64,000 nt of DNA. It comes from Nannocystis bainbridge. GTDB taxonomy: Bacteria > Myxococcota_A > Polyangia > Nannocystales > Nannocystaceae. The notes under the pieces were generated by a model that was given only the letters and a program-made list of their open reading frames with translations, was not told the DNA's origin and made no database searches. The stretch is from positions 256,001 through 320,000 of the forward strand of contig NZ_JAQNDL010000001.1 of NCBI RefSeq assembly GCF_028368995.1, read 5' to 3'. Both the position numbers and the translations under genes were made by a program. This document shows, piece by piece, positions 720 through 64,000 of this stretch (positions within the stretch are counted from its first letter, which is position 1; the number at the start of each line of letters is the position of its first letter).

Positions 720-1954
720 TCCGCCGCTTCGCCCTCCTCAGCACCGCCCTCGCCCTCGCCGCCTGCAACCCCTCCAGCGGCAGCACCGACACCGACACCG
801 GCACCGGCACCGAGACCGACGGACCTGGCACGACGGACATGTCCCCCACGACAGGTGAGGCGCCGGTCGTGGTCGAGCTCGACGCCCCCTGCGACTTCGG
901 TCCCGACGGCGCCACCGAGCTCGCGCTCGTGACCAACGACTTCGTCGCCCCCGCCGGGCTCGGCCGCGTCGACACCGGCGAGCGCCAGATCCTCGCCGAC
1001 CTCCTGCCGGCCACCACCGACACCGCCCTCGGCGCGACCGGCGAGTGGCTCGTCATGGTCCACCGCTTCGGCCACAACCGCATCGACGTGGTCGACCGCG
1101 GCGCATGGCTGCTGCGCGGCTCGGTCGACGTCACCCACAGCGCCGCCGACGACCCCAACCCGCAGGGCGTCACCTTCGCCGCCGACGGCCTCGCCTACGT
1201 GCCGCTGTTCGCCGCGCCGGCGGTCCAGATCTACGACTTCTCGGTCGCCGAGTCGTCGGCCTGGCTGCAGGGCGAGATCGATCTCTCGCCGTTCGCCGAC
1301 GCTGACGGCAGCCCCGAGGCCGGACTCGCGCTCGCGTGCGGCGGCGTGCTGTTCGTCGGCATCCAGCGCCTCGTCGACTTCGCGCCCGTCGACAGCAGCT
1401 ACCTCGTCGCCGTCGACCTCGCGGCGCGGGCCCTGCTCGACCTCGACGTCGCCACGGCAGGCACCCAGGGCATCGAGCTGCTCGGCGCCTACCCCAAGCA
1501 GGTCCGCCGCGATCCGGCCGACGCCGCCGGCCACACCGCGCTGGTCCTGACCTCCGGCGTCGAGCGCGTCGACCTGTCCCGAGGGACATCCGAGTGGGCG
1601 GTCGCCCCCGAAGTCCTGGCGGAGGCCAGCATCGACGGCTTCGACCCGCAGGCGTTCGTCGTCGCCCCCGACGGCGCCTCGATCTTCCTCACTGCCACCG
1701 ACGGTGACTATCCGGCCGCGGCCGTGTTCCAGGTCGGCCTCGATGGCGGCGAGCCGACCGCCCCGGTCAAGGTCGTCGCTGGCCTCAACTCCGGCGACAG
1801 GATGCTCGAGAGAATCGGCGGCACGCTGTGGATCGGCGACGCCAACGGGGCGGCGCCGCGGCTCCGCCTCTACGACGTCGCCGCCGCCGTCGAGGTCGAG
1901 GTCGACGGCCTGACGACCAAGGCCGCCCCGTGGACCTTCATCCCCCTGCCCTGA
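716..1954 (+). CDS. Lipoprotein, YncE/BtuG-like beta-propeller
   Basis: ATG716; MIRRFALLSTALALAAC lipobox; Thr/Gly linker; NPQGV..AYVPL and IDLSPFADADGSPE blades; lies directly after the TBDR. Confidence 0.7.
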   Translation: MIRRFALLSTALALAACNPSSGSTDTDTGTGTETDGPGTTDMSPTTGEAPVVVELDAPCDFGPDGATELALVTNDFVAPAGLGRVDTGERQILADLLPATTDTALGATGEWLVMVHRFGHNRIDVVDRGAWLLRGSVDVTHSAADDPNPQGVTFAADGLAYVPLFAAPAVQIYDFSVAESSAWLQGEIDLSPFADADGSPEAGLALACGGVLFVGIQRLVDFAPVDSSYLVAVDLAARALLDLDVATAGTQGIELLGAYPKQVRRDPADAAGHTALVLTSGVERVDLSRGTSEWAVAPEVLAEASIDGFDPQAFVVAPDGASIFLTATDGDYPAAAVFQVGLDGGEPTAPVKVVAGLNSGDRMLERIGGTLWIGDANGAAPRLRLYDVAAAVEVEVDGLTTKAAPWTFIPLP

Positions 1955-1967
1955 GAGACAGGTCCTC

Positions 1968-3188
1968 ATGAACATGTCCGTTCGCACCTGTGCTCTCGTG
2001 GTGGTCGGTCTCGGCTGCGAATTTGCCGGCCCACTGCCCGGCGACGGCCCGCCGGCCACCGACGCGCCGACGCCGATCGCCGGCTGGCCGCGCGAGGTCG
2101 GCGCCTGCGTCGGCGACTCGGCCGCGCCGACGCGGCTGCTCGTGACCACCACCGACTTCGCCACCGGCGGGGTCAGCACGGTCGCGCTGGCGGGCTTCAC
2201 CGCGCTGGCCGACGTCGCGCTCGGCAGCACCGACGCCAAGCCGTTCTTCTTCGACGGCACCGCCTATGTGCTGCACCGCTACGGCCTCGACGCCCTCGAC
2301 GTGCTCGACCCCGACGACGGCTTCCGCCTGCTGGCGCAGCGGGCGATCGTCGCCGGGGACCCCGAGGTCGTCAGCGCCAACCCGCACGCGCTGGTGGTCG
2401 GTCCCGACGGCCGCGGCTACGTCTCGCTGTTCGGCGCGCCCGAGGTGCAGGTGTGGGACCTGGCCGATGGGACAGCTCCGAGGTTGACCGGGCGCATCGA
2501 CCTCTCGCCGCTGGCCGACGCCGATGGCAACCCCGAGGCCTCCGAGGTCCTGCTGTGCGGCGGCGTGCTGTTCCTCGCCGTCGACCGCGTCGACCAGGAC
2601 GCCGGCCTGGTGCCGAACGAGCCGCGGGCCCGCCTCGCGGCCGTCGACCTCGCCAGCGGCGCCGTGCACGACCTCGACCCCGCGACGCCCGGCGCCCAGG
2701 GCCTGGCGCTGCTCGGCGGGTGGGCCCGGCAATTTCGCCTCGACCCTGCCGACCCGACCGGACGCACCGCGCTGGTCCTCACCACCGGCCTCGAGCGCGT
2801 CGACCTGTCCTCGGGGACATCCGCGTGGGCGGTCGCCGATGCCCGCCTGCAGGCCGCCGGCCTGACCGACTACCGCCTGCCGCAGGCGTTCGCGCTCGGT
2901 CCGGGCGGGACCGACGTCTATCTGGCCGCCTACCGCGTCGACTTCAGCGAGGTCGCGCTGTTCCGCGCCGCGCTGGACCGCGACGAGCCGCTCGTCGAGC
3001 TCGCGTCCGGCATGCAGTCGGTCGAGCAGAGCCTCGAGGTCATCGGCGACATCCTCTACTTCGGCGACCGCGCCCACGGGGCCTCGGGCCTGCGCGCGTG
3101 GGACCTGCGCCAGAGCCCGCCCGCGCCGCTGCCGGGCGCCCCGCTCGCGCTCGGCCTCGCCCCCTACGCCGCCGTGGCGATCCCCTGA
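1968..3188 (+). CDS. Lipoprotein, beta-propeller paralog of 716..1954
   Basis: LVVVGLGC lipobox; shares NPH, IDLSPLADADGNPE and ALVLTTGLERVDLS with the upstream paralog. Confidence 0.7.
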   Translation: MNMSVRTCALVVVGLGCEFAGPLPGDGPPATDAPTPIAGWPREVGACVGDSAAPTRLLVTTTDFATGGVSTVALAGFTALADVALGSTDAKPFFFDGTAYVLHRYGLDALDVLDPDDGFRLLAQRAIVAGDPEVVSANPHALVVGPDGRGYVSLFGAPEVQVWDLADGTAPRLTGRIDLSPLADADGNPEASEVLLCGGVLFLAVDRVDQDAGLVPNEPRARLAAVDLASGAVHDLDPATPGAQGLALLGGWARQFRLDPADPTGRTALVLTTGLERVDLSSGTSAWAVADARLQAAGLTDYRLPQAFALGPGGTDVYLAAYRVDFSEVALFRAALDRDEPLVELASGMQSVEQSLEVIGDILYFGDRAHGASGLRAWDLRQSPPAPLPGAPLALGLAPYAAVAIP

Positions 3189-3192
3189 GCTC

Positions 3193-4170
3193 ATGCCCGC
3201 CCACGATCCGCCCCCGTCCTCGCTCGCGCCCGGCGCCCCCGAACCGGGCGAAAATGGGTCGAAATGCCGCGCGCGCGGCCGTAGACTGCCCGCGGTGCTG
3301 CGCGGCCTGCCTGTCCTTTTCGCCCTGTCTGCATGTACAGGTGCGCCCGCGCCCGCGCCCGAGACCGGCGATGCGCCCGCGCACCGGATCGTCTCGCAGA
3401 CGATCCTCTCCGACGAGGTGCTGTGGGCGCTCGGTCCCGCGGCCCAGGCCCGCGTCGTCGGCGTCAGCGCGCTCGCCGACGACCCCCGCTACTCCGGCGT
3501 CGCCGGCGTATGGCCGCCCGCGACCCCGCGCCGCGCCCTCACCTCCGAGGGCCTGCTCGCGCTCGCCCCCGACCTGGCCGTGATCGCCAGCTTCACCTCG
3601 CCCGAAGTGCGCGAGCTGCTGACGAGCCACGGCGTGCGCCTGCTCGAGTTCACCCGCTTCACCGGCTTCGCCGACTACCGCTCCCACGTGCGCCAACTCG
3701 CCGCCGCGGTCGAGGACCCGGCCGCGGGCGAGCGCCTGATCGCCGACCTCGACGGCCGCCTGGCCCGCCTGGCCGCGCGTCGGCCGGCGATCCGGCTGGC
3801 GGCGGTCAGCTGGGGCGACGGCCACGCCGCGGCCGCCGGCACCAGCTTCGACGACGTCGCCGAGGCAGCTGGCCTTTCGAACATGGCTAAAGAGAAAGGT
3901 CTCGAAGGACATGTCCCTGTGGCCCTGGAGCTGATGGTCTCGTGGGACCCGCCGGTGATCGTCACCGGCTGCCCGGCGCCCGAGCCCGACGACCCGGCCT
4001 GCCGCGCCGCCGAGGCGGCCGTAGCCGCGCTGCCGGGCGTGCGCGCGACCGCGGCGGCGCGGGGCGGGCGGATCTTCGCGGTGCCCGCACGCGCGCTCGC
4101 CAGCACCGGCGAGGGCATGGCGCGCGCCGCCGAGATCTTGCAAGACCGCCTGCGCGCGGAGCCGCCGTGA
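3193..4170 (+). CDS. ABC transporter substrate-binding lipoprotein (BtuF/Fe-siderophore class)
   Basis: RIVSQTILSDEVLWALG and EGLLALAPDLAVI motifs. The real start may be GTG3295 (MLRGLPVLFALSAC lipobox). Confidence 0.85.
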   Translation: MPAHDPPPSSLAPGAPEPGENGSKCRARGRRLPAVLRGLPVLFALSACTGAPAPAPETGDAPAHRIVSQTILSDEVLWALGPAAQARVVGVSALADDPRYSGVAGVWPPATPRRALTSEGLLALAPDLAVIASFTSPEVRELLTSHGVRLLEFTRFTGFADYRSHVRQLAAAVEDPAAGERLIADLDGRLARLAARRPAIRLAAVSWGDGHAAAAGTSFDDVAEAAGLSNMAKEKGLEGHVPVALELMVSWDPPVIVTGCPAPEPDDPACRAAEAAVAALPGVRATAAARGGRIFAVPARALASTGEGMARAAEILQDRLRAEPP

Positions 4171-5168
4171 ACCGCACCACCTGGCTGGCCGCGGCCGCGA
4201 TCCCGCTCGCGCTGCTGCTGTCTCTCGGGACAGGTCCGGGCGAGATCGGCCTCGCCGAGGCGCTCGCCACCATCGGTCGCCGGCTCGCCGGCGACGAGCT
4301 CGATCTGCGCGGCGCGATCGTGTGGGATCTGCGGCTGCCGCGGGCGCTGCTCGCCGGCCTCGTCGGCGCCGCCCTGGCGGCCGCGGGCGCGCTGTGCCAG
4401 GGCCTGTTCCGCAACCCGATGGCCGATCCGGGGGTGCTCGGCGTCAGCTCCGGGGCCGCGCTGTTCGCCGTCGTCGGCCTGCTGTTGGGCTTCGACCGCG
4501 CCGGGTTGTGGGCGATCCCGGTCGTCGCGGCGATCGGCGCGGCCGCGGCCATGGGGCTCCTGCTCGCGGCCGCCGGGCGACAGGCCAGCCTCGCCGTCCT
4601 GCTGCTCGCCGGCGTCGCGCTCGGGGCCCTGTGCTCGGCGCTGATCACCGTGTGTCAGGCGCTCGCCTCGCATCAGTGGGACTTCGGGCTCAAGGTCATC
4701 TACTGGCTGATGGGCAGCTTCGAAGGCCGCAGTTGGCCCCACCTGTCGTGGGCCGTGCCCCCCTGCGGGCTCGGGCTCGCGCTGGCACTATGGCTGCGTC
4801 GCGACCTCGACGCGCTCCACCTCGGCAGCGACGCCGCGGCCTCGCTCGGTGTCGACCTCGCGCGCCTGCGCCTGCTCGTGGTCGTCGCTGTCGGCCTCCT
4901 CGTCGGCGCCGCGACCGCGCTGACCGGCGTACTGGCGTTCGTCGGGCTCGTCGCCCCGCACGTCGCTCGCATGTCCTCGGGGCCAGGTCATCGACGTCTC
5001 GTCCCGCTCGCCGCGCTCGTCGGCGCGAGCGCGACCATCCTCGTCGACGCCGTCGCTCGCTCGGCCAGCGGGGTCGTGATCCCTCCCGGAGTGATCACCA
5101 GCCTGGTCGGCGCGCCTTTCTTTCTGTGGCTGCTCCGGCGTCGCGGCCTGCGCGGACTCGCTGGCTGA
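4167..5168 (+). CDS. FecCD/BtuC family ABC permease
   Basis: WDLRLPRALL, QGLFRNPMADPGVLGVSSGA, AASLGVD, FVGLVAPH, GAPFFLWLL; GTGA overlap with the upstream gene. Confidence 0.92.
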   Translation: MNRTTWLAAAAIPLALLLSLGTGPGEIGLAEALATIGRRLAGDELDLRGAIVWDLRLPRALLAGLVGAALAAAGALCQGLFRNPMADPGVLGVSSGAALFAVVGLLLGFDRAGLWAIPVVAAIGAAAAMGLLLAAAGRQASLAVLLLAGVALGALCSALITVCQALASHQWDFGLKVIYWLMGSFEGRSWPHLSWAVPPCGLGLALALWLRRDLDALHLGSDAAASLGVDLARLRLLVVVAVGLLVGAATALTGVLAFVGLVAPHVARMSSGPGHRRLVPLAALVGASATILVDAVARSASGVVIPPGVITSLVGAPFFLWLLRRRGLRGLAG

Positions 5169-10296: not shown

Positions 10297-10381
10297 CCGC
10301 ATGTCCGCCGAGACATGTCCAATCGGGCATGCCTCTGCGGACATGACTTTTAAAAAGAAGCATGTCCCCGGGGACAGGCGC
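10297..10381. repeat. Array of GGACATGTCC-like palindromic decamers (14-bp period)
   Basis: ccgcatgtcc-gccg-agacatgtcc-aatc-gggcatgcct-ctgc-ggacatgact ... aagcatgtcc-ccgg-ggacaggcgc, in the gap between convergent genes. Confidence 0.85.
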
Positions 10382-10420: not shown

Positions 10421-10611
10421 TCCTCGCTAGCCTCCGAGCGCCCGCCTCGCCTTCGCGCCCTGTTCCTCGCTGGCCTCCGAGCGCCCGCCTCGCCTTCGCG
10501 CCCTGTGCCTCGCTGGCCTCCGAGCGCCCGCCTCGCCCTCGCGCCCTGTTCCTCGCTGACCCGCCTCGCCTTCGTGCCCTGTTCCTCGCTGGCTTCCGTG
10601 CGACCGCCTCG
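10421..10611. repeat. 43-bp tandem repeat, about 4.5 copies
   Basis: Unit tcctcgctggcctccgagcgcccgcctcgccttcgcgccctgt at 10421, 10464 and 10507, followed by degenerate copies. Confidence 0.85.
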
Positions 10612-10662
10612 CTCCTGCTCATCGCCCGCCTCGCCTCTGCTCGGCGCTCGTCTCGCCCGCGC

Positions 10663-13908: not shown

Positions 13909-16260
13909 ATGGAGCGCTGGCGCATCACCGCGGGCCACGTCCCCGGCACTCTCGGCCTGCTGCTGATCCTCGCGGCCGTGGCCCTGGCGATCGTCGAGGC
14001 CGCCCGGGCCTACCGCAAACCTGTCCCTGGGGTCAGCCCGCGGCTGCGCGCCGGCCTGTTCGCGCTGCGCTGCGCCGGCGCCCTCGCGCTGCTGGCCGTC
14101 GCGCTCGAGCTGTCGCTCAGCTTCGAGACCACCAGCGCCGCCGGCCCGCGCCTGGTCATGCTCGTCGACGACAGCGCCAGCATGGGCATCGCCGACGCCG
14201 CGTCGGCCAGCCAGGCGACCATGCGCCGCATCGATCGCGTGCGCGACCTGTGGCGCCGCTCCGAGCCCGCGCGCGCCGACTGGAAGGAGCAGGGCCTCGC
14301 CGTCCAGGTGCGCCGCTTCGGCGAGGGCAGCGAACCGCTCTCCGGCCAGGCCGAGGCCACCCTCGACCTCGACGCCCGCCAGCCCGCCTCCGACCTCACC
14401 CGCGCCTTCGCCGAGCTCGCCGCCATCGACCCCGCCGTCGACCCGCGCCCGCTCGCTGGTGTCATCGTCGTCTCCGACGGCCTCTTCGACCGCGCCGACC
14501 GCGGCGGCGACGACCCGCTGGTGCTCGCCGCCCGCGAGCTCGGCGTGCCCGTCACGGCCGTCGCCGCCGGCGCCCCGCACCTCGTCGACCTCGCCCTCAC
14601 CGAGCTGCGCGCCGGCGAGTTCGCCTTCGTCGAGAACGTCGTCGAGTTCGCCGCCGACATCGAGGCCCACGGCCTCGAGGGCGTCAAGACCGAGGTCGTC
14701 CTGCGCCGCGACGGCCAGGTCGTCGCCACCGAGCCCTTCGTCGCCCCTGCCAGCGGCGAGACCACCGTCCGCTTCGAGGTCGCCCCTGACCGCGTCGGCC
14801 AGTTCGTCTACGAGATCGAGGTCCGCCCCGTCGACGGCGAGGCCAGCCCGCACAACAACCGCCGCGCCTTCGTGGTCAAGGTCCTGCGCGACAAGGTCCG
14901 CGCCCTGCACGTCGCCGGCCGCCCCGACTGGGACGTCCGGGCCCTCCGCACCCTGCTCGGCCGCGACCCCAACGTCGAGCTGCTCAGCTACTACATCTTG
15001 CGCGGGGCCGACGACGCCGACCGCGAGGACCCGTTCGCTCCGCTGTCGCTGATCGCCTTCCCCACCGACGAGCTGTTCAAGGAGCAGCTCGGCAGCTTCG
15101 ACCTCGTCATTCTCCACAACTTCGACGCCCTCAACCACCAGGTCGGCCGCTACTTGCCCGACATCGGCCGCTACGTCGAGGAGGGCGGCGCCCTGGTGAT
15201 GATCGGCGGCGACATGGGCCTCGCCACCGGTGATTATCCCGCGCCCGCGCTCTCGGCCGTCGTCCCGGTCGACCTGCGCGTGCCCACCGGCCTCGACGTC
15301 GAGCCGTTCCGCCCCGCGATCACCGACGCCGGCCGGCGCCACCCGATCACCGCGTGGATCGATCACAGCCGCCTGTCCGATTGGTCGACCCTGCCGCCGC
15401 TCGACAGCTACAACCCCGCCAAGCTGGCCCGCCACGAGGCCGAGATCGGCAGCGCCGTGCTGCTGCGTCACCCCGAGGGCGGCCCGCTGCTCACCATCGC
15501 CGAGCCCGGTCGCGGCCGCGTCCTCGTGTTCAGCACCGGCGCCAGCTGGCGGCTCGGCTTCCACGCCGACCTCCCGATCGTCGACGGCGCGCGGCCTTAC
15601 GATCTCCTGTGGCTCGGCGCGATCCGCTGGCTGCTGCGCGACAGCGCCGCCGACCGCCTCACCCTCGAGACCGACCGCCCCACCTATCTGCTCGGCGCCC
15701 CGATCACCCTGCGGGCCGCCGCGCTCTCGCCCTCCTACGCCCCCGAGGCCGGCGTCGAGGTCGGCTGGCGCGTGCAACCACTCGGCCACGCCGCCGACGA
15801 TCCCGGCGCCGATCCCAACGCCCCCGTCACGATCCTGTCCCAGGGGACATGGACCACCGACGCGCTCGGGCGGGCCAGCGAGACCCTCGGCGGCGGCCTC
15901 TCGGTCGGCGCCTACGAGGCCGTGGCCCAGCGCGCTGGCGGCGACGAGGCCTCCGCCGCCCCGCAGCAGGCGCGCCGCGTCTTCCTCGTCCAGGCCGCCG
16001 GCCGCGAGCTCACCCGCCTCGCCAGCGGCCCCGGCGACGAGCGGCTGCAGCGGCTCGCCGAGGCCACCGGCGGCCGCTTCTTGCGCGCCGGCAGCGACGA
16101 CCTGCCTGCCTCCCCGCCGCTGGCCCCCGATCGCCAGGATCGCGAGCGCGTCGACAGTCGCCGCGACGTCCCGGTCTGGAGCGGCGGCCTCGCCATGGTC
16201 TTGCTCATCGTCTGTCTCGGCGGCGAAGTCCTGGTGCGGCGCCGGGTCGGCCTCGCCTGA
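13909..16260 (+). CDS. Membrane protein with vWA-like and glutamine-amidotransferase-like domains
   Basis: N-terminal TM helices; LVDDSASM and VVSDG (MIDAS-like); NNRR; FDLVILHN and EEGGALVMIGG; ATGGRF; C-terminal TM ending RRRVGLA. Confidence 0.75.
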   Translation: MERWRITAGHVPGTLGLLLILAAVALAIVEAARAYRKPVPGVSPRLRAGLFALRCAGALALLAVALELSLSFETTSAAGPRLVMLVDDSASMGIADAASASQATMRRIDRVRDLWRRSEPARADWKEQGLAVQVRRFGEGSEPLSGQAEATLDLDARQPASDLTRAFAELAAIDPAVDPRPLAGVIVVSDGLFDRADRGGDDPLVLAARELGVPVTAVAAGAPHLVDLALTELRAGEFAFVENVVEFAADIEAHGLEGVKTEVVLRRDGQVVATEPFVAPASGETTVRFEVAPDRVGQFVYEIEVRPVDGEASPHNNRRAFVVKVLRDKVRALHVAGRPDWDVRALRTLLGRDPNVELLSYYILRGADDADREDPFAPLSLIAFPTDELFKEQLGSFDLVILHNFDALNHQVGRYLPDIGRYVEEGGALVMIGGDMGLATGDYPAPALSAVVPVDLRVPTGLDVEPFRPAITDAGRRHPITAWIDHSRLSDWSTLPPLDSYNPAKLARHEAEIGSAVLLRHPEGGPLLTIAEPGRGRVLVFSTGASWRLGFHADLPIVDGARPYDLLWLGAIRWLLRDSAADRLTLETDRPTYLLGAPITLRAAALSPSYAPEAGVEVGWRVQPLGHAADDPGADPNAPVTILSQGTWTTDALGRASETLGGGLSVGAYEAVAQRAGGDEASAAPQQARRVFLVQAAGRELTRLASGPGDERLQRLAEATGGRFLRAGSDDLPASPPLAPDRQDRERVDSRRDVPVWSGGLAMVLLIVCLGGEVLVRRRVGLA

Positions 16261-19757: not shown

Positions 19758-22786
<3,029 letters not shown>

Positions 22787-22787: not shown

Positions 22788-22880
22788 CGCCTGTCCTCCA
22801 GGGCATGTCCGCGAGGACCTGCGCGAAAGCGCATGTCTTTTCGAACATGCACGAAAGGGCATGCCCTCGCGGACATGCCC
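22787..22880. repeat. Seven-unit 14-bp-period palindromic array
   Basis: gcgcctgtcc-tcca-gggcatgtcc-gcga-ggacctgcgc-gaaa-gcgcatgtct-tttc-gaacatgcac-gaaa-gggcatgccc-tcgc-ggacatgccc, between convergent stop codons. Confidence 0.9.
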
Positions 22881-37273: not shown

Positions 37274-37353
37274 GGACATGTCTCATCGAGAATGTCTTGA
37301 AGGACATGCTCTTTACGACATGTCTTCGAGGACATCCACGTCATGACATCGTC
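37274..37353. repeat. Six-unit 14-bp-period palindromic array
   Basis: ggacatgtct-catc-gagaatgtct-tgaa-ggacatgctc-ttta-cgacatgtct-tcga-ggacatccac-gtca-tgacatcgtc. Confidence 0.88.
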
Positions 37354-40033: not shown

Positions 40034-40099
40034 GGACATGCCCGATCGAGCATGTCCGTACGGACATAAACCAAGGGACATGCTCCGAGGAGCATGTCC
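40034..40099. repeat. Five-unit 14-bp-period palindromic array
   Basis: ggacatgccc-gatc-gagcatgtcc-gtac-ggacataaac-caag-ggacatgctc-cgag-gagcatgtcc, between convergent genes. Confidence 0.9.
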
Positions 40100-50215: not shown

Positions 50216-51793
50216 GTGGACTTCGCCCTCGCCCCCGCCCTGCTCGCCGCGCTCGTCGGCGATCCGGGCGTGGCCGCGACCGCGGCGACCGCCGTCCGTC
50301 TACCTGTCCCGGTGGACATGTCTCAAAAGGCCAAGACCGGGACCGCCGAATCACATGTCCCCGCGGACATGTCCCAAAGCGCATCCGGAAGCCCCGCCCC
50401 CGAATCACATGTCCCCGCGGACATGTCCCCAGAAGCAGCCGGTAGAGACGCCGCCACCTCCTCACATGTCCCCGCGGACATGTCCCAAAACGCAGCCGGC
50501 AAAGCCGCCGCGCCCCCCGGCGGAGCACCTGCCCCCACGGACCTGTCCCCAAGCACAGCCGACCAGGAGACCCAGCTCGCGCTCCGCCCTCGCGCCTCCC
50601 GACCCGCCGCCGAGCCGCTGCGCCCCGGCGGCACCCCGCCGCTCGCCGCCCGCGGCCCCGACGCTCTCCCTGTCGAGCCCGGCACTCCGCACACCCTGTT
50701 CATCAACTTCGACGGCGCCGTCCTGCGGCGCGGCTGCGGCAACGACTCGCGCCACGACTGCAGCACCCTCGCCGACATGTTCGACGGCTACATCGGCCCG
50801 TTCGTCGGCACCGAGGCGCGGCGGGTCGCCATCATCGAGTCGGTGCGCAAGGACCTGCGAGAGATCGGCGTGCGCACCACCTGGCGGCGCCCGCCCGACG
50901 ATCCCGGCTACACCATGGTCCTCTACGGCGACATCGGCGCCCAGGACTTCGCCGGCATCGCCCCCTACATCGACTGCGGCAACCTGTGGGCCAACGACAC
51001 CTGCTTCGCCGGCGCCTTCAAGGGCTCCAACACCGGCGCCACCATCGTCTTGCAGGAAGCTGCGCACACCTGGGGCCTCGAGCACGTCAACAGCCCGTTC
51101 GACAACCTGCACCCGTTCGTCGAGGCGCCGACCCCGTACTTCCAGGATCAGTGCAACAAGATCGTCGCCAACACCGACCTCGTCGAGACCTCCGGCGTCT
51201 GCAACCTCGTGCACGAGATGTTCTGCGAGACCGGCTACCAGAACAGCTTCCAGGAGCTGCTCTATCTGTTCGGCCCGGCCCAGCCCGACATCACCGCCCC
51301 GACTCTGAAGCTCACCAGCCCGGCCGACGGCTCGTACCACGTGCTGCCGGTCGACCTGTCGCTCTACGGGGAGGTCGTCGACGATCTCGAGCCGCAGTTC
51401 TACGCCGTGGAGATCCAGCAAGCCGGTCAGACGCTGTTCAGCGACGAGGCGATTCGCGTCGACCTGCGGCTCAAGAACCCGCCGCCGGGCGAGTATGATC
51501 TGCTCGTCACCGTGCGCGACGAGGGCGGCAACGCCGGCAGCGATCGCGTGCGCTTCACGATCCTCCCCGAGGGCAGCGAAGACCCCGACAGCACCACCGG
51601 CGACGGCGACACCGGCAGCACCGGCGACACCGACGACACCAGCACCGGCGGCCTGTCCGAGACGCAAGGCTGCGACCTCGCCGTCGCCGCGGGAGGCCCT
51701 GCCTGGCTCCTCGGGCTCGCGCTCGTGCGTCGGCGCCGGCGATCACCCGCGGCCCGCCGCACCGCGCTGGCAACCCCGACCGCGCCGCGCTAA
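50216..51793 (+). CDS. Paralogous zincin-like + Ig-like surface protein with N-terminal HVPADMS repeats
   Basis: LFINFDGA, QEAAHTWGLEH, QNSFQELL, DITAPTL, GC..WLLGLALVRRRR. Confidence 0.78.
   Translation: MDFALAPALLAALVGDPGVAATAATAVRLPVPVDMSQKAKTGTAESHVPADMSQSASGSPAPESHVPADMSPEAAGRDAATSSHVPADMSQNAAGKAAAPPGGAPAPTDLSPSTADQETQLALRPRASRPAAEPLRPGGTPPLAARGPDALPVEPGTPHTLFINFDGAVLRRGCGNDSRHDCSTLADMFDGYIGPFVGTEARRVAIIESVRKDLREIGVRTTWRRPPDDPGYTMVLYGDIGAQDFAGIAPYIDCGNLWANDTCFAGAFKGSNTGATIVLQEAAHTWGLEHVNSPFDNLHPFVEAPTPYFQDQCNKIVANTDLVETSGVCNLVHEMFCETGYQNSFQELLYLFGPAQPDITAPTLKLTSPADGSYHVLPVDLSLYGEVVDDLEPQFYAVEIQQAGQTLFSDEAIRVDLRLKNPPPGEYDLLVTVRDEGGNAGSDRVRFTILPEGSEDPDSTTGDGDTGSTGDTDDTSTGGLSETQGCDLAVAAGGPAWLLGLALVRRRRRSPAARRTALATPTAPR
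50300..50562 (+). repeat. In-frame repeats built on the palindromic motif
   Basis: Exact 25-mer tcacatgtccccgcggacatgtccc at 50351, 50405 and 50462, plus degenerate copies at about 50300 and 50525. Confidence 0.9.
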
Positions 51794-52602: not shown

Positions 52603-52613
52603 TCCGCGGCGCC

Positions 52614-53039: not shown

Positions 53040-53227
53040 CTACGCCAGCCTCGCCGCGCCCGCAACGGCGCGGTCCCCGTCCACCTGTCCCCAAGGACAC
53101 GCGAGAATCGCCGCGGAGTTCGCCCGGCTCCGCCCATCGTCCCGTGACCACCGCGCCGACGTCGATCCCGGCGAGCCCATGCGGCAGACGAAGCGCTCAG
53201 CCGCCTCGGCCTCGCCTCGACGCTCGC

Positions 53228-54130: not shown

Positions 54131-54226
54131 CCCTGCAGTATCGGCCACTTCGGCCTCGCGGACAGCGGTCGCTTCCGCGCCTTCAGGATGCGCCGGCGCC
54201 GCCGCGCACACCTTTATACTCGCCGC

Positions 54227-55816: not shown

Positions 55817-55964
55817 CCTGTCCGCTCAAGGGCGAGGCTGCCCGAAGGGACAGGTCAGCGCAGCACCCGAAGACATCGAGCTGCATCCTTCACCTGTCCC
55901 TGAGACCAGGCTCGGCCTCACTCCCTGGTTGACCCCTCGCCTGTCTCACAGACCACTCGCGCGC

Positions 55965-57470: not shown

Positions 57471-57569
57471 AAATAGCGCGGCGCAGGCCGCAAAGAGAGC
57501 GGCTGCGCCGGGCGTACGCGGATTTGGGGTTGTCGGGTCCAGGGCCGAGCCGGTCGGCGAGCGCAGCGG

Positions 57570-58085
57570 CTAGCCGGAGGTGCCGCTGGAGCTGTTGCCC
57601 ATGCACAGCGAGGTGTCGAACGTGCAGGTCACCGGGTCGCAGCCGAGCTGGCCGCCGGCGTTGCCGAGCGACTCGCAGGTGAACCCGTTGAGGTTGCCGC
57701 CGTCGCACTGCTCGTTCGGATCGATGTTGCCGTTGCCACAGCCGGCGGGGTCGGTCGTCTGCGTGGTCGTCGTGGTCGACGTCGAGGTGTCGGGATCACC
57801 GGTGGTGGTGGTGTCCGGCAGCGTGGTCGACGTCGGCCCGTTGGTGGTCGGCGTCACCGTCGTGCTGGTCGTGTCCGGGCCGGTCGTCGGGTCGCCGGTG
57901 GTGGTGCTCGTGCCCGGGGCGCCGGTCGAGGTGTCCGTGCCGCTCGACGTGTCCGTCGTCTGGTTCGTGTTGCTGTTGGTGTTGGGGTTGTTGGTACTGA
58001 AACCGCCCGCACCACCATCGTCCCCGCAAGCGGGAGCGAGACACAGCAAGGAAACGGAGCAAGCGAGCGTACGCCAGGCGGTCAT
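57570..58085 (-). CDS. Thr-rich lipoprotein with myxobacterial Cys-rich (CGNG..EQCD) module
   Basis: LCLAPAC lipobox; TTTGDP linkers; CGNGNIDPNEQCDGGNLNGFTCESLG..C..CTFDTSLC. Confidence 0.8.
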   Translation of the reverse strand: MTAWRTLACSVSLLCLAPACGDDGGAGGFSTNNPNTNSNTNQTTDTSSGTDTSTGAPGTSTTTGDPTTGPDTTSTTVTPTTNGPTSTTLPDTTTTGDPDTSTSTTTTTQTTDPAGCGNGNIDPNEQCDGGNLNGFTCESLGNAGGQLGCDPVTCTFDTSLCMGNSSSGTSG

Positions 58086-58688
58086 GGCGCCTTTATCCCC
58101 AAGGCGCAGCCCGAGGGTCAAGAGAAAAGCGAGCACGACCTCAGAGGCCGTCCGAGCCGGCCCAGAGACCTGCATCACGGGTTTTAGCGACATGCAGGCC
58201 AGTGGAGCCGCGAGCACCCACGCGTCGTCACTGGCACTCGCGCGGTACTTCAAGGACGACCGAGTTGGTGAGTGAGCATTGAAAAATCAGTCCGCGAAGC
58301 GAGACGGCCACGCGGGTCGGCGGCACCACCTTCTGGGCCACCTTCATCGCCGGCCCACGACCGGACCGCGGGCCAATCACCACATGAACTTTGGGACAGC
58401 CAAACCGACGCCGACGGGCCCAGCGAGCACCCGGACATCCGACCGTGACGGACGGGCGAGCCACGGCTCGGCCCGCCCGCTCGCAACCCCTTGTTCGTCG
58501 CATACCCCGCCATGAGTCCGCTGCCGCCCGCGGCGAGGCCCGCCCTCGCGGCCTTCGGGTCCGATTATACCGTATATTTTTAGATCTATTATGACGAAGA
58601 CTTACGCCACTGAACATCAAGTAAATCCGAGCTTGCGAAACAGCCCCTTTGCGCCCCCCACGGCGCGAGTGCTACCACGAAGGTCCAC

Positions 58689-61439
58689 GTGACACTCTCC
58701 GATGCTCCTGCCATGACCCCGACCTGGCGCGAGAGCCTGGAACGCGTCTGCGCGGCCGTCGTCTCGGTCCGGATCGACGCCCCGCGCCCCTTCGACACCG
58801 AGTGGAACGGCAGCTCCCAGGCCACTGCGTTCGTCGTCGACGCCGAGCAAGGCCTCCTGCTCAGCAACCGCCACGTCGTCCAGCCCGGCCCCGTGGTCGC
58901 CGAGGCGGTCTTCCTCAACCACGAGGAGATCCCGCTGCGACCGGTCTACCGCGACCCGGTCCACGACTTCGGGTTCTTCCGCTACGACCCCACGGCCCTG
59001 CGCTTCATCCGGCCGCCGGCGCTGCGCCTGCGCCCCGACAAGGCCCTCGTCGGCACCGAGCTGCGCGTGGTCGGCAACGACGCCGGCGAGAAGCTCTCCA
59101 TCCTCGCCGGCACGCTCGCCCGCGTCGATCGCCCGGCGCCGCTCTATGGGTCGAGCAAGTACAACGATTTCAATACCTTTTACCTGCAGGCTGCAAGCGG
59201 AGCGTCAGGTGGATCTTCCGGCTCTCCGGTGGTCGACATCGAGGGCGACGTCATCGCCCTCAACGCCGGCAGCCGGACCCAGGCCGCCTCGAGCTTCTTC
59301 CTCCCGCTCGAGCGAGTGCTGCGCGCCTTCGAGCTGCTGCGTGCGGGTCAGCCGATCTCGCGCGGCACCTTGATGACGACTTTCTCGTACACCCCGTTCG
59401 ACGAGCTGGCGCGCCTCGGCCTCCGCCCCGAGACCGAGCAGGTCTGCCGCGCCGCCGACCCGGGCGGCATCGGCCTGCTCATCGTCGACAAGCTGATCCC
59501 CGGCGGCCCGACCGACAACCTGCTCGAGCCGGGTGACATCCTCCTGCGCGTCGAGGGCGAGTTCATCCCCCGCTTCGTCCCGCTCGAGGCCCGCCTCGAC
59601 GCCTCGGTCGGCCAGACCATCACCCTCGAGCTCGAGCGCGGCGGCCGGCCCCTCACCATCCGCGCCAAGGTCCACGACCTCCACGCCGTCTCCCCCAGCA
59701 CCTATCTCGAGGTTGGCGGCGCGATCCTCCACGACCTCTCCTACCAGCGGGCCCGCAACCCCCAGGTTCCCCTGACCGGCGTGTACCTCGCCAACAGCGG
59801 CTACCTGTTCTCGCCCCTCGACCTCGACCGCGGCGCCGTGGTCCGCGCCATCGCCGGCGTGCCGACGCCGGATCTGGCGGCCGCCGAGGCCGTCCTCGGC
59901 AACTTGCCGCACGCGGCACCCTTCATGGTCCGCTGGATCGACCTCGACCAGCCGACCCGCGAGCACGTCACCGTCCTCACCATGGACCGGCGGTGGTTCG
60001 CCATGACCCGCTCGACCCGCGACGACGCCTCGGGGCGCTGGCCGTCGGCCGAGGCCCCGCCGCCCCCGGCACCTCCGGTGCGCACGCCGGTCACCACCAA
60101 CCTGCCGCCCTCCGACGACATCCGGGTGCAGCAGGTCCAGCCCTCGCTGGTCACGGTCACCTGCAACATCCCGTTCAAGATCGACGGCATCCACGCCACC
60201 CGCTTCGTCGGCGCCGGCCTGGTCGTCGACGCCAAGCGCGGGCTCGTGCTCGTCGACCGCAACACCGTCCCGATCGCGCTCGCCGACATCACCCTCACCG
60301 TCGCCGGCGCGGTCGAGATCCCCGGCGAGATCGCCTTCCTCCATCCGCACCACAACTACGCCCTCGTCGCGTACGACCCGGCCCTCCTCGGCGACACGCC
60401 GATCCGCGCCGTCGACCTCGCCCCGCGCCCGCTCCACCCCGGCGATCCGGTGTGGCTCGTCGGGCTCAAGTCGGGCCACCGCGTGTTCGCCCAGAGCACC
60501 GCCGTCGCAGCCGTCGAGGCCGTCGACTTGCCGCTGCCGCGCCCGCCCCGGTTCCGCGCCATGAACCTCGAGCGGATCTCTCTCACCAGCGCCACCGCCT
60601 CGCTTGGCGGCGCCATCGTCGACAGCGAGGCCCGCGTGCTCGCGCTGTGGGCCGGCTTCTCCTACCAGGACGGCAAGGACCACCGCGTCGCCGAGTACGG
60701 CATCGCCGCCGACCTGTTCGCCGAGGCCGTCGAGATCTTCCGCCGCGGCGAGTCGCCGATCGTCTGCGACCTCGGGGTCGAGTTCGGCACCGTCACCCTC
60801 GCCGAGGCGCGTCACCGCGGCCTGTCCCCAGAGGCAGCCGCCGAGCTCGAGGGCCACGACCCGCTGCGCCGCCAGGTGCTCGTCGTCCAGCGCCTGGCCG
60901 CGTTCGCCCGCGGCTGGCAAGCGGGCGACCTGGTCCTTCGGGCAGGTGGCGCCGCCGTCACCTCGGTCCGCGAGATCGAGCGATCGCTGCGCGGCGGGCG
61001 GGTCACCGTCCGCCTGCTGCGCGACGGCCGGGAGCTCGACCTCGAGGTCGAGACCCGCCCCGACGACGGCCGCGGCACCGACCGCGTGCTCCACTGGGCC
61101 GGCGCGCTGCTGCAGGCCCCGCACCACGCCGCGCTGATCCAGCGCGCCGTCCCCGACGAGGGCGTGTACATCTCGCTCTACTGGTACGGCTCGCCCGCCA
61201 GCCGCTCGCGCCTCCGCGCCGCCCGCCGGATCGTCGCCGCCGAGGACCGCCCCACCCCCGACATCGACAGCTTCCTCGCCGCCGTCGCCGGCAAGCCCGA
61301 CCGCGCCTCCGTCCGCCTCAAGACCGTCGACCTCGACGGCAAGGTCGACCTCCTGACCCTCCGCCTCGACCTCGAGTACTTCCCGACCTACGAGCTCCGC
61401 CGCACCGGCGACGGCTGGATCCGCATCGACCACGCCTGA
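58689..61439 (+). CDS. DEG7/Nma111(Ynm3)-type HtrA serine protease (duplicated protease-PDZ-PDZ)
   Basis: SNRHVV (His), YRDPVHDFG (Asp), GGSSGSPV (Ser), VVGNDAGEKLSILAG, YNDFNTFY; second degenerate protease domain (VDRNTVP); C-terminal YGSPA PDZ. Alternative start ATG58713. Confidence 0.88.
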   Translation: MTLSDAPAMTPTWRESLERVCAAVVSVRIDAPRPFDTEWNGSSQATAFVVDAEQGLLLSNRHVVQPGPVVAEAVFLNHEEIPLRPVYRDPVHDFGFFRYDPTALRFIRPPALRLRPDKALVGTELRVVGNDAGEKLSILAGTLARVDRPAPLYGSSKYNDFNTFYLQAASGASGGSSGSPVVDIEGDVIALNAGSRTQAASSFFLPLERVLRAFELLRAGQPISRGTLMTTFSYTPFDELARLGLRPETEQVCRAADPGGIGLLIVDKLIPGGPTDNLLEPGDILLRVEGEFIPRFVPLEARLDASVGQTITLELERGGRPLTIRAKVHDLHAVSPSTYLEVGGAILHDLSYQRARNPQVPLTGVYLANSGYLFSPLDLDRGAVVRAIAGVPTPDLAAAEAVLGNLPHAAPFMVRWIDLDQPTREHVTVLTMDRRWFAMTRSTRDDASGRWPSAEAPPPPAPPVRTPVTTNLPPSDDIRVQQVQPSLVTVTCNIPFKIDGIHATRFVGAGLVVDAKRGLVLVDRNTVPIALADITLTVAGAVEIPGEIAFLHPHHNYALVAYDPALLGDTPIRAVDLAPRPLHPGDPVWLVGLKSGHRVFAQSTAVAAVEAVDLPLPRPPRFRAMNLERISLTSATASLGGAIVDSEARVLALWAGFSYQDGKDHRVAEYGIAADLFAEAVEIFRRGESPIVCDLGVEFGTVTLAEARHRGLSPEAAAELEGHDPLRRQVLVVQRLAAFARGWQAGDLVLRAGGAAVTSVREIERSLRGGRVTVRLLRDGRELDLEVETRPDDGRGTDRVLHWAGALLQAPHHAALIQRAVPDEGVYISLYWYGSPASRSRLRAARRIVAAEDRPTPDIDSFLAAVAGKPDRASVRLKTVDLDGKVDLLTLRLDLEYFPTYELRRTGDGWIRIDHA

Positions 61440-61861
61440 GCCTGTCCCTCGGGACAGGCCATTTCCACATGTCCTGAAGGACAGGCAACCCGGCACGCCC
61501 CGAGCGCTGCCGTGGCACCTGTCTCGAAGGACATCCGCTCGCGGCCAAATCTCGGTGCCGCAGCCATCGACCAGCGCATATGCGGAGCCGCCTGCGTGCT
61601 CGGACAACATGTCCCCGAGGACATCTCATTCCCTCGCGCACCTGCCTCGCGAGCCGACGCGAACATGTCCCAAGGGACACATTCATAATTGCCGAGTTCG
61701 GCCCCGTCGTCGTCACGCGGATCGAACCCCGGGGTCGGGACGAGCCTGTCCCCAGGGACACCTGCTCATCTGCGCGGAGATTTCCCGAACATGTCCTGAC
61801 GGCCACCCGCTCGACCTCGGCCCCGCGCCGCCGTGATGGACATGTCCCGAAGGACATCCCC
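61438..61861. repeat. Cluster of about 8 TGTCC-N4-GGACA dyads
   Basis: Dyads begin at 61438, 61465, 61515, 61605, 61661, 61742, 61787 and 61838. Confidence 0.88.
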
Positions 61862-61991
61862 CTGTGACACCTGAGTCTCCCCGCACGCTCGCGGCCGCGG
61901 CCCGCGGCCCCGTCGCTTCGGCCCCGCCCGTGCTCGCGGCTCGCCCCGTCAACCGCTTCCTCGGCCGACGCATTCCCGCTACGCTGACTCG

Positions 61992-63032
61992 ATGCGGCTC
62001 GCGTTCGTCGTCGGCCTCGGGCTTCTCGGCGCCTGCGTGCCCAGCGATCATCCCCCGTGGCTCGTCGACCACCCGATGCCCTGGGGCATCGTCGCCAGCG
62101 TCGTCGAGCCGGGCGGTTACTCCACCGGGCTCGTCGTCCCCGAAGGTCGCGTGCGAGCCTCCGCCCTCCCGCTCGACACCCTCGAGCTGCAGTGGATCGC
62201 CGCCACGCCGCCCGGCGTCACCGTCCCCCCGCCGATCTGGTTCATCTGTCCCTCCTACTGCGGCGCGCTGCTCGCCGAGCCCCTCCCGACCTGCCCCTTC
62301 CCGTTGCCGCTGGCGATCACCGAAAATTGTCGCCTCGACGAGGGCGAGCGGGTCCGCCTCAGCCTCGGCGGCGCCTATACGGCCGACGAAACCTTCCTCG
62401 GCCACTTCGGCGTCCTGGCCATCACCGGCGACGGCAGCATCGACGCCGAGACCTGCGTGCAGCGGCTCGGCACCATCCCGCGCAGCGGCCTCGAACGCTG
62501 CCTCGTGCAGACGCGCCTCATCGAGCTGGGCCCGCTAGGCCGGCTCCTTACCACCGTGCCCGGCCTCGTGGACGACGACGCCATCGCCGAGTTGCCCGAC
62601 GACCTCGCCGACGAGCCGGCCGACTTCCACCCCGTGCTCGCCGGCGTGCGCGTGCGTCACTTCGGCCGCGGCGGCCTTCAGGAACAGCTCGCCCAGCCCG
62701 GCGACACGATCGAGGTGCGCGTCGACGACATCGTCCACCTCGTGCCCGAGTTCACCGTCGACTCCGAGCAGGACTACTACGAGATCACGCTGTCGTCCGG
62801 CACCCCGCAGCGCCTGTCGGCCATCCTCAAGAGAGAGTGGTTCTTGACCCGGACCGGCATCACCACGCTGGTCGACACCCTCGACCCTCCCGACGCCGAC
62901 AACATCAGCACCTGGCGCGTCCCCGACGAGCCCGAGCCCATCCTCTTCTACTTCTACTCCACCGACATCCGCCAGGGCCGCGCCTTCGCCAGCCTGCGCT
63001 TCGTCGTCGCGGACGCGACCCCCGCGCCATGA
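61992..63032 (+). CDS. Hypothetical Cys-containing lipoprotein
   Basis: GLLGAC lipobox; ATGA overlap with the downstream TBDR. Confidence 0.72.
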   Translation: MRLAFVVGLGLLGACVPSDHPPWLVDHPMPWGIVASVVEPGGYSTGLVVPEGRVRASALPLDTLELQWIAATPPGVTVPPPIWFICPSYCGALLAEPLPTCPFPLPLAITENCRLDEGERVRLSLGGAYTADETFLGHFGVLAITGDGSIDAETCVQRLGTIPRSGLERCLVQTRLIELGPLGRLLTTVPGLVDDDAIAELPDDLADEPADFHPVLAGVRVRHFGRGGLQEQLAQPGDTIEVRVDDIVHLVPEFTVDSEQDYYEITLSSGTPQRLSAILKREWFLTRTGITTLVDTLDPPDADNISTWRVPDEPEPILFYFYSTDIRQGRAFASLRFVVADATPAP

Positions 63033-64000
63033 TCGCCGTCGCGCTCGGCCTCCTCCTCGCCGCCCCTCCGTCGGCCGCGGCGCAAGAACCACATGTCCCT
63101 TCGGACATCTCACCTCGCGACGCCCCGGCCTCTGCTCGACCTGTCCCTTCGACCAGTTCACGCCTCGACGCCCCAACCTCCGCGCGACCTGTCCCTTCGA
63201 CCAGCCGCCTCGAGGCCCGCGGCAGCTTGCGCAGCGCCGGCGAGCGCCAGCCGCTGGTCGGCGCGCGGGTGTTCGCCGGCGGCCGCCGCGGCCCCGCGTG
63301 GACGCGCGAGGCCGTCACCGCCGCCGACGGCAGCTTCGTCCTCGCCGACCTGCCCGCCCTCGACTTCGACTTCATCGTCGTCGCTGCCGGTCACGAGCGC
63401 CTCGAGCAAGCGACCACCGCCGGCTTCTGGCGCCGCCGGCGGCCGCCCGTCGTCTACGTGCAACCGGCGGGCGCGGGCCGCTACCGCACCATCGTCGCCC
63501 AGGAGCGCTACCCCAAACCGAGCCCCTTCAGCGTCCAGCTCGCGCCCGACGAGATCGCCGCGCTGCCCGGCAGCCAGGGCGATCCGCTGCGCGCCCTGCA
63601 GAACCTGCCCGGCGCCGCGCGTGTCCCCGGCGGCCTCGGCCTGCTGATCTTCCGCGGCGCTGCACCCAATCAATCGCAGGTGTTCTTCGGCGAGCACCCC
63701 GTGCCGCGCGCCTTCCACGTGCCCGGCCTCGCCAGCATCGTGCCCGCCGGCGTGCTGTCGGGCCTGCAGTACGTGCCCAGCAACTTCGCCGCCAACTACG
63801 GCAACGCCACCGGCGGCCTCGTCGTCCTCACCCCGCGCGTCGGTCGACGCGACGGCGTGCACGGCCACGCCAAGCTCGACATCATCTCCGCCGGCGCTCT
63901 CGTCGAGGGGCCGATCGGTCGCGGCTCGTTCATGATCGCCGCCCAGCGCGGCTACCTCGACGTCGCCCTCAAGACCGTCGGCCGCCTCGCCTTCGGGAGC
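63029..64000 (+). CDS. TonB-dependent receptor, N-terminal part (3' truncated)
   Basis: Signal peptide; carboxypeptidase-like domain (TAADGSFVLADLP); plug LPGSQGDPLRALQNLPG..LIFRGAAP..FH; YGNATGG. Confidence 0.85.
   Translation, partial: MIAVALGLLLAAPPSAAAQEPHVPSDISPRDAPASARPVPSTSSRLDAPTSARPVPSTSRLEARGSLRSAGERQPLVGARVFAGGRRGPAWTREAVTAADGSFVLADLPALDFDFIVVAAGHERLEQATTAGFWRRRRPPVVYVQPAGAGRYRTIVAQERYPKPSPFSVQLAPDEIAALPGSQGDPLRALQNLPGAARVPGGLGLLIFRGAAPNQSQVFFGEHPVPRAFHVPGLASIVPAGVLSGLQYVPSNFAANYGNATGGLVVLTPRVGRRDGVHGHAKLDIISAGALVEGPIGRGSFMIAAQRGYLDVALKTVGRLAFGS

Follow-up and report, generated by a model that had tools for sequence, protein, structure and literature searches.

A high-copy interrupted palindrome in 14-bp register at the gene ends of Nannocystis

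The 64-kb stretch of the Nannocystis bainbridge genome analysed here (hereafter the window) is strewn with copies of a short interrupted palindrome, TGTCC-N4-GGACA, which are often chained into arrays with a strict 14-bp period. An earlier note, made from the letters of the window, had singled out this dyad as a possible target of a dimeric protein that binds or modifies DNA, and as a candidate for an undescribed element. We have followed it through the whole genome (11.05 Mb in 5 contigs, 71.5% G+C) and through related genomes, and find a lineage-specific high-copy palindrome that is similar to repetitive extragenic palindromes and bacterial interspersed mosaic elements (REP/BIME) in placement, to the palindrome HIP1 in abundance and conservation, and to lux-type boxes in form. 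The copies accumulate just past the stop codons of genes and in the gaps between convergent genes, and outside Nannocystis the motif is limited to two sister genera, referred to as g2 and g4. The explanation that we favour, and to which we give about an even chance, is that the motif is the site of a symmetric dimeric protein that binds double-stranded DNA (dsDNA), and that it was inherited in this three-genus clade and hugely expanded at the gene ends of Nannocystis. What the data show directly is the anatomy of the site, its numbers, positions, symmetry and conservation, and its range within the clade. That a dimeric protein reads the site is what we infer from its form and behaviour; as to the effect at gene ends, our guesses are that binding forms a roadblock or an insulator where transcription units converge, that it organises topology or the nucleoid in the manner of REP/BIME, or that it titrates a regulator.

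Abundance, anatomy and placement

The over-representation of the dyad is real and very strong. Within the window the exact form occurs 23 times, in and between genes and on both strands, as compared with 0.04 on average, and never more than 1, in 100 dinucleotide shuffles. If one mismatch is allowed, there are 52 units, i.e. one per 1.2 kb, in line with the density of about one locus per 1.5 kb that had been estimated by eye, and units with at most two mismatches number 99, versus 26.3 +/- 4.9 in the shuffles. At each of the positions named in the earlier note there is a unit with no more than two mismatches, usually 5 nt further downstream, flank bases having been counted there (for instance 826/840, 1947-1988, 3870-3925, 12389, 19838, 32136, 44376 and 56730). 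Genome-wide, the exact dyad is found 1987 times with a spacer of k=4 and only 0-19 times with each of the other spacers from 0 to 15, and its backwards-read version occurs 3 times; the count over spacers that had been proposed as a check therefore bears out the N4 geometry. Units with one mismatch number 4258 at spacer 4, versus 98-267 at spacers 3, 5 and 6, and those with two mismatches number 7530, versus 2058-4617 at the same three spacers. Because of these excesses, the genome total, degenerate copies included, can be put at roughly 10,000 units, or about one per kb.

The unit is the dyad rather than the half-site, since CATGTCC has a partner (with at most two mismatches) at N4 in 74% of its copies and at other spacers in about 8%; the TGTCC 5-mer, dyads aside, is close to its composition expectation. 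The junction form GGACATGTCC is present in 956 copies, and GGACA-N14-TGTCC in 638. A codon-preserving shuffle, the other check that had been suggested, was made on the last 70% of the 4903 open reading frames (ORFs) called with confidence (4.84 Mb), and there too the excess stands out: these hold 398 exact sites, whereas 10 synonymous-codon shuffles gave 10.3 on average and 16 at most, and the enrichment is thus 39-fold.

The matrix of the 1987 exact sites reads R-C-(A/C)-TGTCC-YYRR-GGACA-(T/G)-G-Y, and no position further than +/-3 nt from the 14-bp core is conserved. The whole unit is thus a palindrome of 20 bp, the outer ACATGT of which can be common to adjacent units (GGACATGTCC), and it is this sharing between neighbours that sets the period at 14 bp. 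The position before TG is A in about half of the copies and C in 43%. Within the arms, G1 and C12 are near-invariant, C3/G10 and T0/A13 come next, and T2/A11 is loose, the information per position being equal in both arms. Variants affecting one arm occur in the hundreds, and complementary double variants are about as frequent as is expected from multiplying the single-variant frequencies, apart from mild excesses; the half-sites vary independently, and there is no compensatory maintenance or selection for pairing. The spacer is nearly free, with a symmetric preference for Y, Y, R, R, in which CG and TC/GA are favoured and GC and GG/CC depleted.

At offset 14, and with at most two mismatches per unit, arrays of 2, 3, 4, 5, 6, 7 and 8 units number 1451, 363, 95, 50, 18, 3 and 2, respectively, while pairs at offsets 13 and 15 number only 4 and 5, so that the strict 14-bp period first noticed in the window holds throughout the genome. 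The chaining pattern is identical in kind in a 460-kb stretch of a related species. Neighbouring or alternate units of an array often have identical spacers (e.g. ctga five times, or tggc and gaac in alternation), periods of 28 bp were found by Tandem Repeats Finder (TRF) at 22800-22878 and 37292-37349, and a few indels of 14-15 nt lie within arrays when species are compared. The identical neighbouring spacers and the 14-15-nt indels indicate that units are created by slippage and that arrays grow in this way.

The main positional rule, which had gone unremarked in the earlier note, concerns gene 3' ends and convergent gaps. Genes were called by a crude ORF filter based on the G+C content of third codon positions (GC3), and the positional percentages are therefore approximate. 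An exact site lies 0-50 nt past the stop codon in 401 of the 4903 confident ORFs and within an equal span before the start in 46; a unit with at most one mismatch lies within 100 nt after the stop in 1446 ORFs (29.5%) and before the start in 397 (8.1%). At least one unit is present in 56% of convergent gaps (5.9 units per kb), in 23-28% of tandem gaps (2.1-2.5 per kb) and in 11% of divergent gaps (0.8 per kb), and the longest arrays span from stop codon to stop codon in convergent gaps of about 100 bp. Along the chromosome, the density varies between 10 and 108 units per 100 kb across all contigs without any ori/ter macrodomain, and its dips coincide with segments of lower G+C content and zero skew that may be acquired DNA. 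One such stretch, C1:1100000-1300000 (positions outside the window are given by contig), has about 10 units per 100 kb where 30-100 are found elsewhere, with 69% G+C and a GC skew near zero, and may represent acquired DNA or giant biosynthetic genes.

The strong 3' bias recalls the extragenic location of REP/BIME, yet the 398 coding sites mentioned above show that genes are not spared. Coding phase is seen on both flanks of 384 of the 1987 exact sites, and these fall into two mirror-image frames (181 and 166) far more often than into the third (37). Most of them are read as nnT-GTC-CNN-NNG-GAC-Ann (V-P/L-x-D), the frame that best matches the GC3 bias. The densest loci within ORFs are proline-rich low-complexity repeats such as PVPEDS. 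At C2:2066860-2068000 and C5:659416-660640, which hold 17 and 16 units per 1.5 kb, long ORF-like repeats rich in Pro, Ala, Asp and Ser carry a unit in nearly every repeat, and coding repeat and DNA motif seem to have spread together.

A peak at 0-50 nt past stop codons is what would be expected if the units were the intrinsic hairpin terminators of a GC-rich host, their symmetry making them bidirectional and common between convergent genes; moreover, 42 of 290 matches of a crude hairpin-plus-T scan contain a unit. The loops, when oriented by the upstream gene, are nevertheless symmetric (CGAA 39, TTCG 39), and single changes in tandem gaps comprise 111 of the G·U type versus 94 of the C·A type, i.e. 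G·U is not preferred, and compensatory maintenance is not seen. Isolated oriented units (n=219) have symmetric flanks and no T-tract, the frequencies of A and T being 0.148 and 0.155 upstream and 0.151 and 0.156 downstream. Ordinary terminators exist in this genome: tRNA genes typically have a GC-rich hairpin with a T-rich tail on their 3' side, and a unit follows within 100 nt in only 8 of 102 cases. In addition, an RNA hairpin has no need of one exact loop length, and about 400 copies lie inside ORFs. In the crude scan, which matches 14 of the 102 tRNA genes and 5-8% of ORFs, units and hairpin-plus-T terminators were not mutually exclusive (odds ratio 1.5). From the symmetric loops, the lack of a G·U preference and of a T-tract, the ordinary tRNA terminators and the single fixed loop length, we conclude that the element is recognised in double-stranded form, as a symmetric DNA site, and regard a terminator function of the hairpin kind as barely credible. 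Among the tRNA genes themselves, a canonical tail (...TTGCTTTGGTC) after a GC-rich hairpin is seen, for example, at C1:1004619, C1:2344487 and C1:4245794. Some 30 tRNA genes are densely clustered in AT-richer DNA at C2:2556665-2559163 with no units among them, and this cluster, like a second one of 7 tRNAs at C2:2356727-2357431, may be of phage or island origin.

Conservation and taxonomic range

Four other Nannocystis genomes, which are not independent of each other, align collinearly with the window at about 90% identity. At orthologous sites, such as 1575, 10302 and 22792, the arms have been retained while spacers and flanks have been altered. When 520 kb of this genome was compared with 460 kb of one relative, G005, the identity of arms, spacers and flanks was 81%, 66% and 69% for the 55 noncoding units, 87%, 64% and 77% for the 90 units at gene edges, and 96%, 91% and 91% for the 55 coding units. 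The best-kept positions, G1 (93%), C3 (93%) and C12 (95%), are also the most informative ones of the site matrix. Another 88 noncoding units are in DNA that cannot be aligned with G005, from which we conclude that turnover is high.

Rapid intergenic turnover, with 88 unalignable units against 55 aligned ones, is also what a selfish REP-like hairpin would display, that is, a single-stranded DNA hairpin copied by an unrecognised transposase and accumulating wherever insertions are tolerated, namely in 3' gaps and disordered protein segments, perhaps with a secondary role in mRNA-end stabilisation or gyrase binding as for REP/BIME. The location past stops and in convergent gaps, the clustering, the restriction to one lineage, the gap 61441-61940 with a different set of units in each species and the low-complexity, proline-rich character of the densest loci within ORFs all fit such an element. 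The accessible text of one study describes REPs as 20-40 bp long, conserved in sequence and tagged with GTAG or CGTC, the CGTC type likewise lacking a known transposase (PMC3733652). As with REP/BIME, the units are short lineage-specific palindromes in hundreds to thousands of copies, often clustered. In contrast to REP/BIME, they consist of two fixed arms of 5-8 bp around a free spacer, abut at exactly 14 bp and occur by the hundreds in ORFs, with no GTAG or CGTC tag and no sequence conserved outside +/-3 of the core. A REP-associated tyrosine transposase (RAYT, of the Y1 type; PF01797) had no match in this genome (90.5% complete), whereas 6 of 14 control genomes were positive in the same search. 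Multi-copy sequence other than rRNA operons and overlapping contig ends is limited to three small families resembling insertion sequences (IS), of three copies each, whose ends bear no relation to the motif. The nearly free spacer, which has not been copied along with the arms, is hard to square with copy-and-paste from a master element; selection for pairing is not seen, and orthologous arms have been kept across about 10% DNA divergence. On balance, we hold the selfish-hairpin explanation to be distinctly unlikely. An excision footprint, made up of a CATG target duplication and a 10-bp scar, was considered as well, and no multi-copy element with matching ends was found. Several contig ends (C1:4515655-4536530, C2:3022058-3033751, C2:1-3513 and C5:710377-717528) share 28-mers present in at least three copies over several kb, which suggests unresolved large repeats at assembly breaks.

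The range of the motif is narrow. Its 18-letter form is present in 10 of 10 Nannocystis genomes; among 8 further genera of the family, two have it, at 2-5 copies, and among 12 other families of the class none does. For the 14-letter form, copies were counted in 61 genomes of Nannocystaceae: all 7 Nannocystis (g1) genomes have 333-2090 exact copies, versus 2-6 for the backward control, all 5 genomes of g2 have 87-169 and all 7 of g4 have 67-696; the genus g28 is marginal, with 5-20 copies in 7 of 7 genomes as against 2-7 for the backward control, and 13 other genera stay at the level of the control. When one genome per species of the Genome Taxonomy Database (GTDB) was scanned for the two-unit chain, 4 records were returned, all from Nannocystis. 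Among orthologues of the HtrA-like gene of the window in g2 and g4, a unit stands at the gene end in 1 of 5, two of these five loci having less than 120 nt of downstream sequence. Among public sequencing runs, a search with positions 52001-62000 of the window matched 5 metagenomes, with word shares of 0.07-0.09, and no RNA data set.

A site as old as the three-genus clade also bears on the idea of a functionless mutational or repair drive, be it biased mismatch correction or quasi-palindrome template switching combined with slippage, with promoters cleared by selection. Such a drive would account for the array units, adjacent or alternate, with identical spacers and for the 14-15-nt indels, and the order convergent > tandem > divergent could be explained by tolerance alone. 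Apart from the age of the site, however, a drive acting on an interrupted dyad of 10-14 bp would still demand a sequence-specific symmetric protein, and generic palindrome-perfecting cannot yield one sequence at one spacing. A Vsr-type system has no basis in this genome, which is without a C5 methylase; the corresponding family (PF00145), found in only 2 of 7 Nannocystis genomes and patchy across Nannocystaceae, was rejected as a candidate. We thus consider the drive very unlikely.

Loci in the window

Two abutting units with 2 and 1 mismatches that share GGACATGTCC lie at 826..853 and are kept in 4 of 4 aligned relatives. The exact unit at 1575..1588, whose arms are kept and whose spacer differs between species, has a twin with the same flanks at 2806..2819, the latter being translated as L-S-S-G-T within ORF 1968-3188, for which no Pfam match was obtained. 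The two lie in paralogous ORF segments, 1061-1756 and 2274-2990, which are about 70% identical. Degenerate arrays in 14-bp phase are found at 1947..1988 (three units, at 1947, 1961 and 1975) and at 3870..3925 (units at 3870, 3898 and 3912). A three-unit array that begins 6 nt past the stop at 10296 is followed first by AT-rich sequence and then by an exact unit at 10363, the whole extending over 10302..10376; CATG is retained there in 4 of 4 relatives while the spacers have been altered. Directly behind it, at 10421-10665, is a C-rich tandem repeat (period 43, 4.7 copies) without the motif.

Coding copies include the exact unit at 15836..15849 within ORF 13909-16260 (GATase1-like), unchanged in 4 relatives, and two abutting units at 21506..21533 within the M16 peptidase ORF 19590-22787, identical in 4 relatives. 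Downstream of ORF 16329-16751, the segment 16827..16951 holds three exact units (16827, 16872 and 16938), of which the first two are absent or rearranged in some relatives. The phased array at 22792..22875 fills the gap in which a plus-strand ORF with its stop at 22787 and a minus-strand ORF ending at 22905 converge, with a TRF period of 28 bp, i.e. two units. Two units 28 bp apart, with 1 mismatch each, lie at 37293..37334, at the 5' edge of ORF 37297-40026, and an exact unit at 40053..40066 occupies the convergent gap between 40026 (+) and 40119 (-). At 50305..50557, a tandem repeat of 54-57 bp in about 3 copies has an exact unit plus a third half-site per copy (CATGTCC-CCGC-GGACATGTCC) and varies among relatives.

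The segment 52538..52597, with units at 52538, 52552 and 52584, is just downstream of the pyrophosphatase-like ORF 52614-53039 on the minus strand, and an exact unit at 53086..53099 lies in the divergent, promoter-side gap between 53039 (-) and 53144 (+). Eight units, 6 of them exact, occupy 61443..61856 in the 500-bp gap behind the HtrA-like ORF 58689-61439, the first one 4 nt past the stop; this is the gap mentioned above (61441-61940), which is unalignable between species. At 63094..63203, finally, an exact unit 62 nt past the stop at 63032 is accompanied by two degenerate units in a 48-bp tandem repeat.

Candidate readers, related systems and interpretation

The earlier note had proposed a search for a gene whose presence tracks the motif. 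None of the three candidates that we followed across genomes, i.e. LuxR proteins that bind acyl-homoserine lactones (AHL), C5 methylases and one N6/N4 methylase, does so. The last, a methyltransferase domain at C2:2306632-2307279 that is probably a housekeeping orphan methylase, occurs at 67-96% identity in all 17 genera sampled from the family and therefore does not follow the motif. The genome encodes about nine methyltransferases of the N6/N4 type, one of the D12 type and several of the N6_Mtase type, of which this one N6/N4 gene was profiled across the family.

These genes matter most for a comparison with HIP1, a contiguous 8-mer tied to two orphan methyltransferases. The dyad could be a self-mark of that kind, i.e. 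the target of an orphan methyltransferase or of some other modifying, repair, uptake or recombination protein, kept for chromosome-level reasons (nucleoid structure, marking of own DNA, or as an aid to recombination) and without a role at gene ends; this explanation has the reader protein in common with the one we favour, and differs from it mainly in function. HIP1 (GCGATCGC) is described, in the accessible text of the sources, as hyperabundant, conserved between genomes beyond background and unsettled in function (PMC5861425; PMC4390886). Likewise, the Nannocystis motif amounts to about one palindrome per gene, is hyperabundant in ORFs and gaps alike, recruits synonymous codons, is spread over all contigs with dips where DNA was perhaps acquired, and is conserved between species above its flanks, abundance and conservation both having been tested here; the methyltransferase genes just listed could supply a modifying enzyme. 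On the other hand, the motif is interrupted, with a free 4-bp centre, and its half-sites are mostly paired. Neither a bias to 3' flanks such as the one found here nor abutting 14-bp arrays are reported for HIP1 in the accessible part of the source (PMC5861425). A methyltransferase that follows the motif was not found among those examined, C5 enzymes being absent here and the profiled N6/N4 gene family-wide. A mark of the HIP1 kind is in our opinion unlikely, if still to be kept in view.

Lux-type boxes number few to tens per genome and lie at promoters. The motif has in common with them a CTG-N10-CAG dyad and the dimensions of a homodimer site of 16-20 bp, the full fit being limited to the 43% of copies with C at -1, and some copies in a sister genus lie just upstream of genes. 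According to the available part of one paper, the operators of the LuxR-type dimers CviR and CsuR have the form CTGNCC-N4-GGNCAG, that of CsuR being CTGTCCGATAGGACAG (PMC12114271). The 'CC' variant of the motif, CTGTCC-N4-GGACAG, agrees with this form letter for letter, and CTGTCCGATAGGACAG fits the motif exactly, a relation that the earlier note did not bring up. Since the form is the same, a helix-turn-helix dimer can read the exact geometry of the motif. Unlike lux-type boxes, however, the motif has about 10,000 copies, mostly at 3' ends and in arrays, and AHL-binding LuxR does not follow it.

The DNA uptake sequence (DUS) of Neisseria and the uptake signal sequence (USS) of Pasteurellaceae are single asymmetric 9-12-mers that are active alone too, with inverted pairs occurring behind genes. 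The motif resembles them in its density of about one per kb, its clade-specific 'dialect' and its presence in ORFs and gaps, but its half-site is in excess essentially only where it forms a dyad with one exact spacing. The met-box of MetJ and other ribbon-helix-helix operators consist of 2-5 abutting units with an 8-bp period at a handful of promoters; here as well short palindromes abut in tandem with room for side-by-side dimers, but the period is 14 bp and the arrays are genome-wide. The comparisons with HIP1, DUS, REP and matS/SBS/parS that had been suggested each break down in at least one defining feature, as does that with the lux-type box. No description of the motif was found in the papers searched on REP, on repeats of Nannocystis and Myxococcota, and on the N. 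exedens genome (supplements aside), and in this respect the element may be called undescribed; the accessible portion of the N. exedens genome note mentions only unresolved large repeats.

The favoured explanation, a symmetric dimer that reads dsDNA, is suggested by the strict N4, the loose spacer, the independent half-sites and the lack of asymmetry with respect to transcription, and also by the recruitment of synonymous codons, by arms that outlast spacers and by promoter-proximal copies in a sister genus. The latter come from a g2 genome, G011, in which 20 sites, picked by eye for AT-rich flanks, were read in loci of about 61% G+C; for at least 5 of them, a Pfam-supported ORF has its first start codon within the next 50 nt downstream, the ORF starts being uncertain. 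The ORFs in question encode a fatty acid desaturase, OmpA, FG-GAP, DUF4215 and CAP proteins, and one site lies in a 67-bp divergent gap, so that the placement looks like that of ordinary operators. At the G011 loci L031, L113 and L139, three sites are next to DUF4215 genes and two next to CAP-domain genes, which may reflect a small ancestral regulon of secreted proteins.

On this explanation, a C2-symmetric homodimer would read the 20-bp R-C-M-TGTCC-YYRR-GGACA-K-G-Y on dsDNA, touching two half-sites of 7-9 bp with centres about one helical turn apart and leaving the central 4 bp largely uncontacted. Protein and site would have been inherited in a clade of three Nannocystaceae genera. A sister genus has about 90-170 exact sites, some by promoters like ordinary operators, and in Nannocystis the site has expanded to about 10,000 units, chiefly in the first 50 nt past stops and in convergent gaps. 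Abutting sites there share CATG, the 14-bp-phased arrays grow and shrink by unit-length slippage, and copies within genes take the frame best suited to codon bias. A stronger version, in which the sequence-specific protein polymerises in 14-bp register on arrays at gene ends, as a bidirectional transcription stop, insulator or supercoil barrier for at least a third of the protein-coding genes, seems doubtful to us. Three dimers would then correspond to four helical turns, RNA-hairpin terminators would have been largely replaced, and the system would have evolved from a promoter operator still visible in the sister genera.

Several observations weigh against the dimer explanation. To our knowledge, about 10,000 sites far exceed any known regulon, and placement near promoters, as in lux-type boxes, is not what is found in Nannocystis (0.8 units per kb in divergent versus 5.9 in convergent gaps). 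The 3' placement could merely reflect the tolerance of 3' gaps for insertions, and the conservation of the arms could be due to molecular drive instead of selection for binding. The outermost pair C..G occurs 65 times versus about 16 expected, and flanks -1/+14 are weakly pair-correlated (A:T 652 versus 560 expected), which leaves some room for a hairpin form. The G011 sites, as said, were a hand-picked sample. No cognate protein or modification was identified among the candidates examined, so that the earlier proposal of a dimeric DNA-binding or DNA-modifying protein is only partly supported, the evidence for symmetric dsDNA recognition notwithstanding. AHL-type LuxR (PF03472) gave marginal scores in 2 of 31 genomes, a count that includes only 2 of the 11 Nannocystis genomes, and does not track the motif. 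Two of the 10 GerE genes of G011 lie 1-1.5 kb from a site, the sites being inside neighbouring ORFs, and a Crp-type helix-turn-helix match in the same genome merely holds a site in its coding sequence. The ORFs beside promoter-side sites in the present genome include one MarR, one TetR and one GyrB-like protein among 20, with no pattern.

REP, HIP1 and DUS are known as short, lineage-specific palindromes of high copy number whose origins and functions are debated, and the motif of Nannocystis is an unusually clean one, with one exact spacing, a free centre, a strict 14-bp register and about 10,000 copies over 11 Mb. Its copy number is graded over three genera, from tens to hundreds in two of them to thousands in Nannocystis. 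This gradient offers a rare view of a regulator site turning into a genome-wide element, and makes the search for the reader protein tractable. The motif is worth masking or modelling in the annotation of promoters, terminators and repeats of these natural-product-rich genomes. If the arrays do stop or insulate transcription, they would represent a new bacterial way of ending genes.

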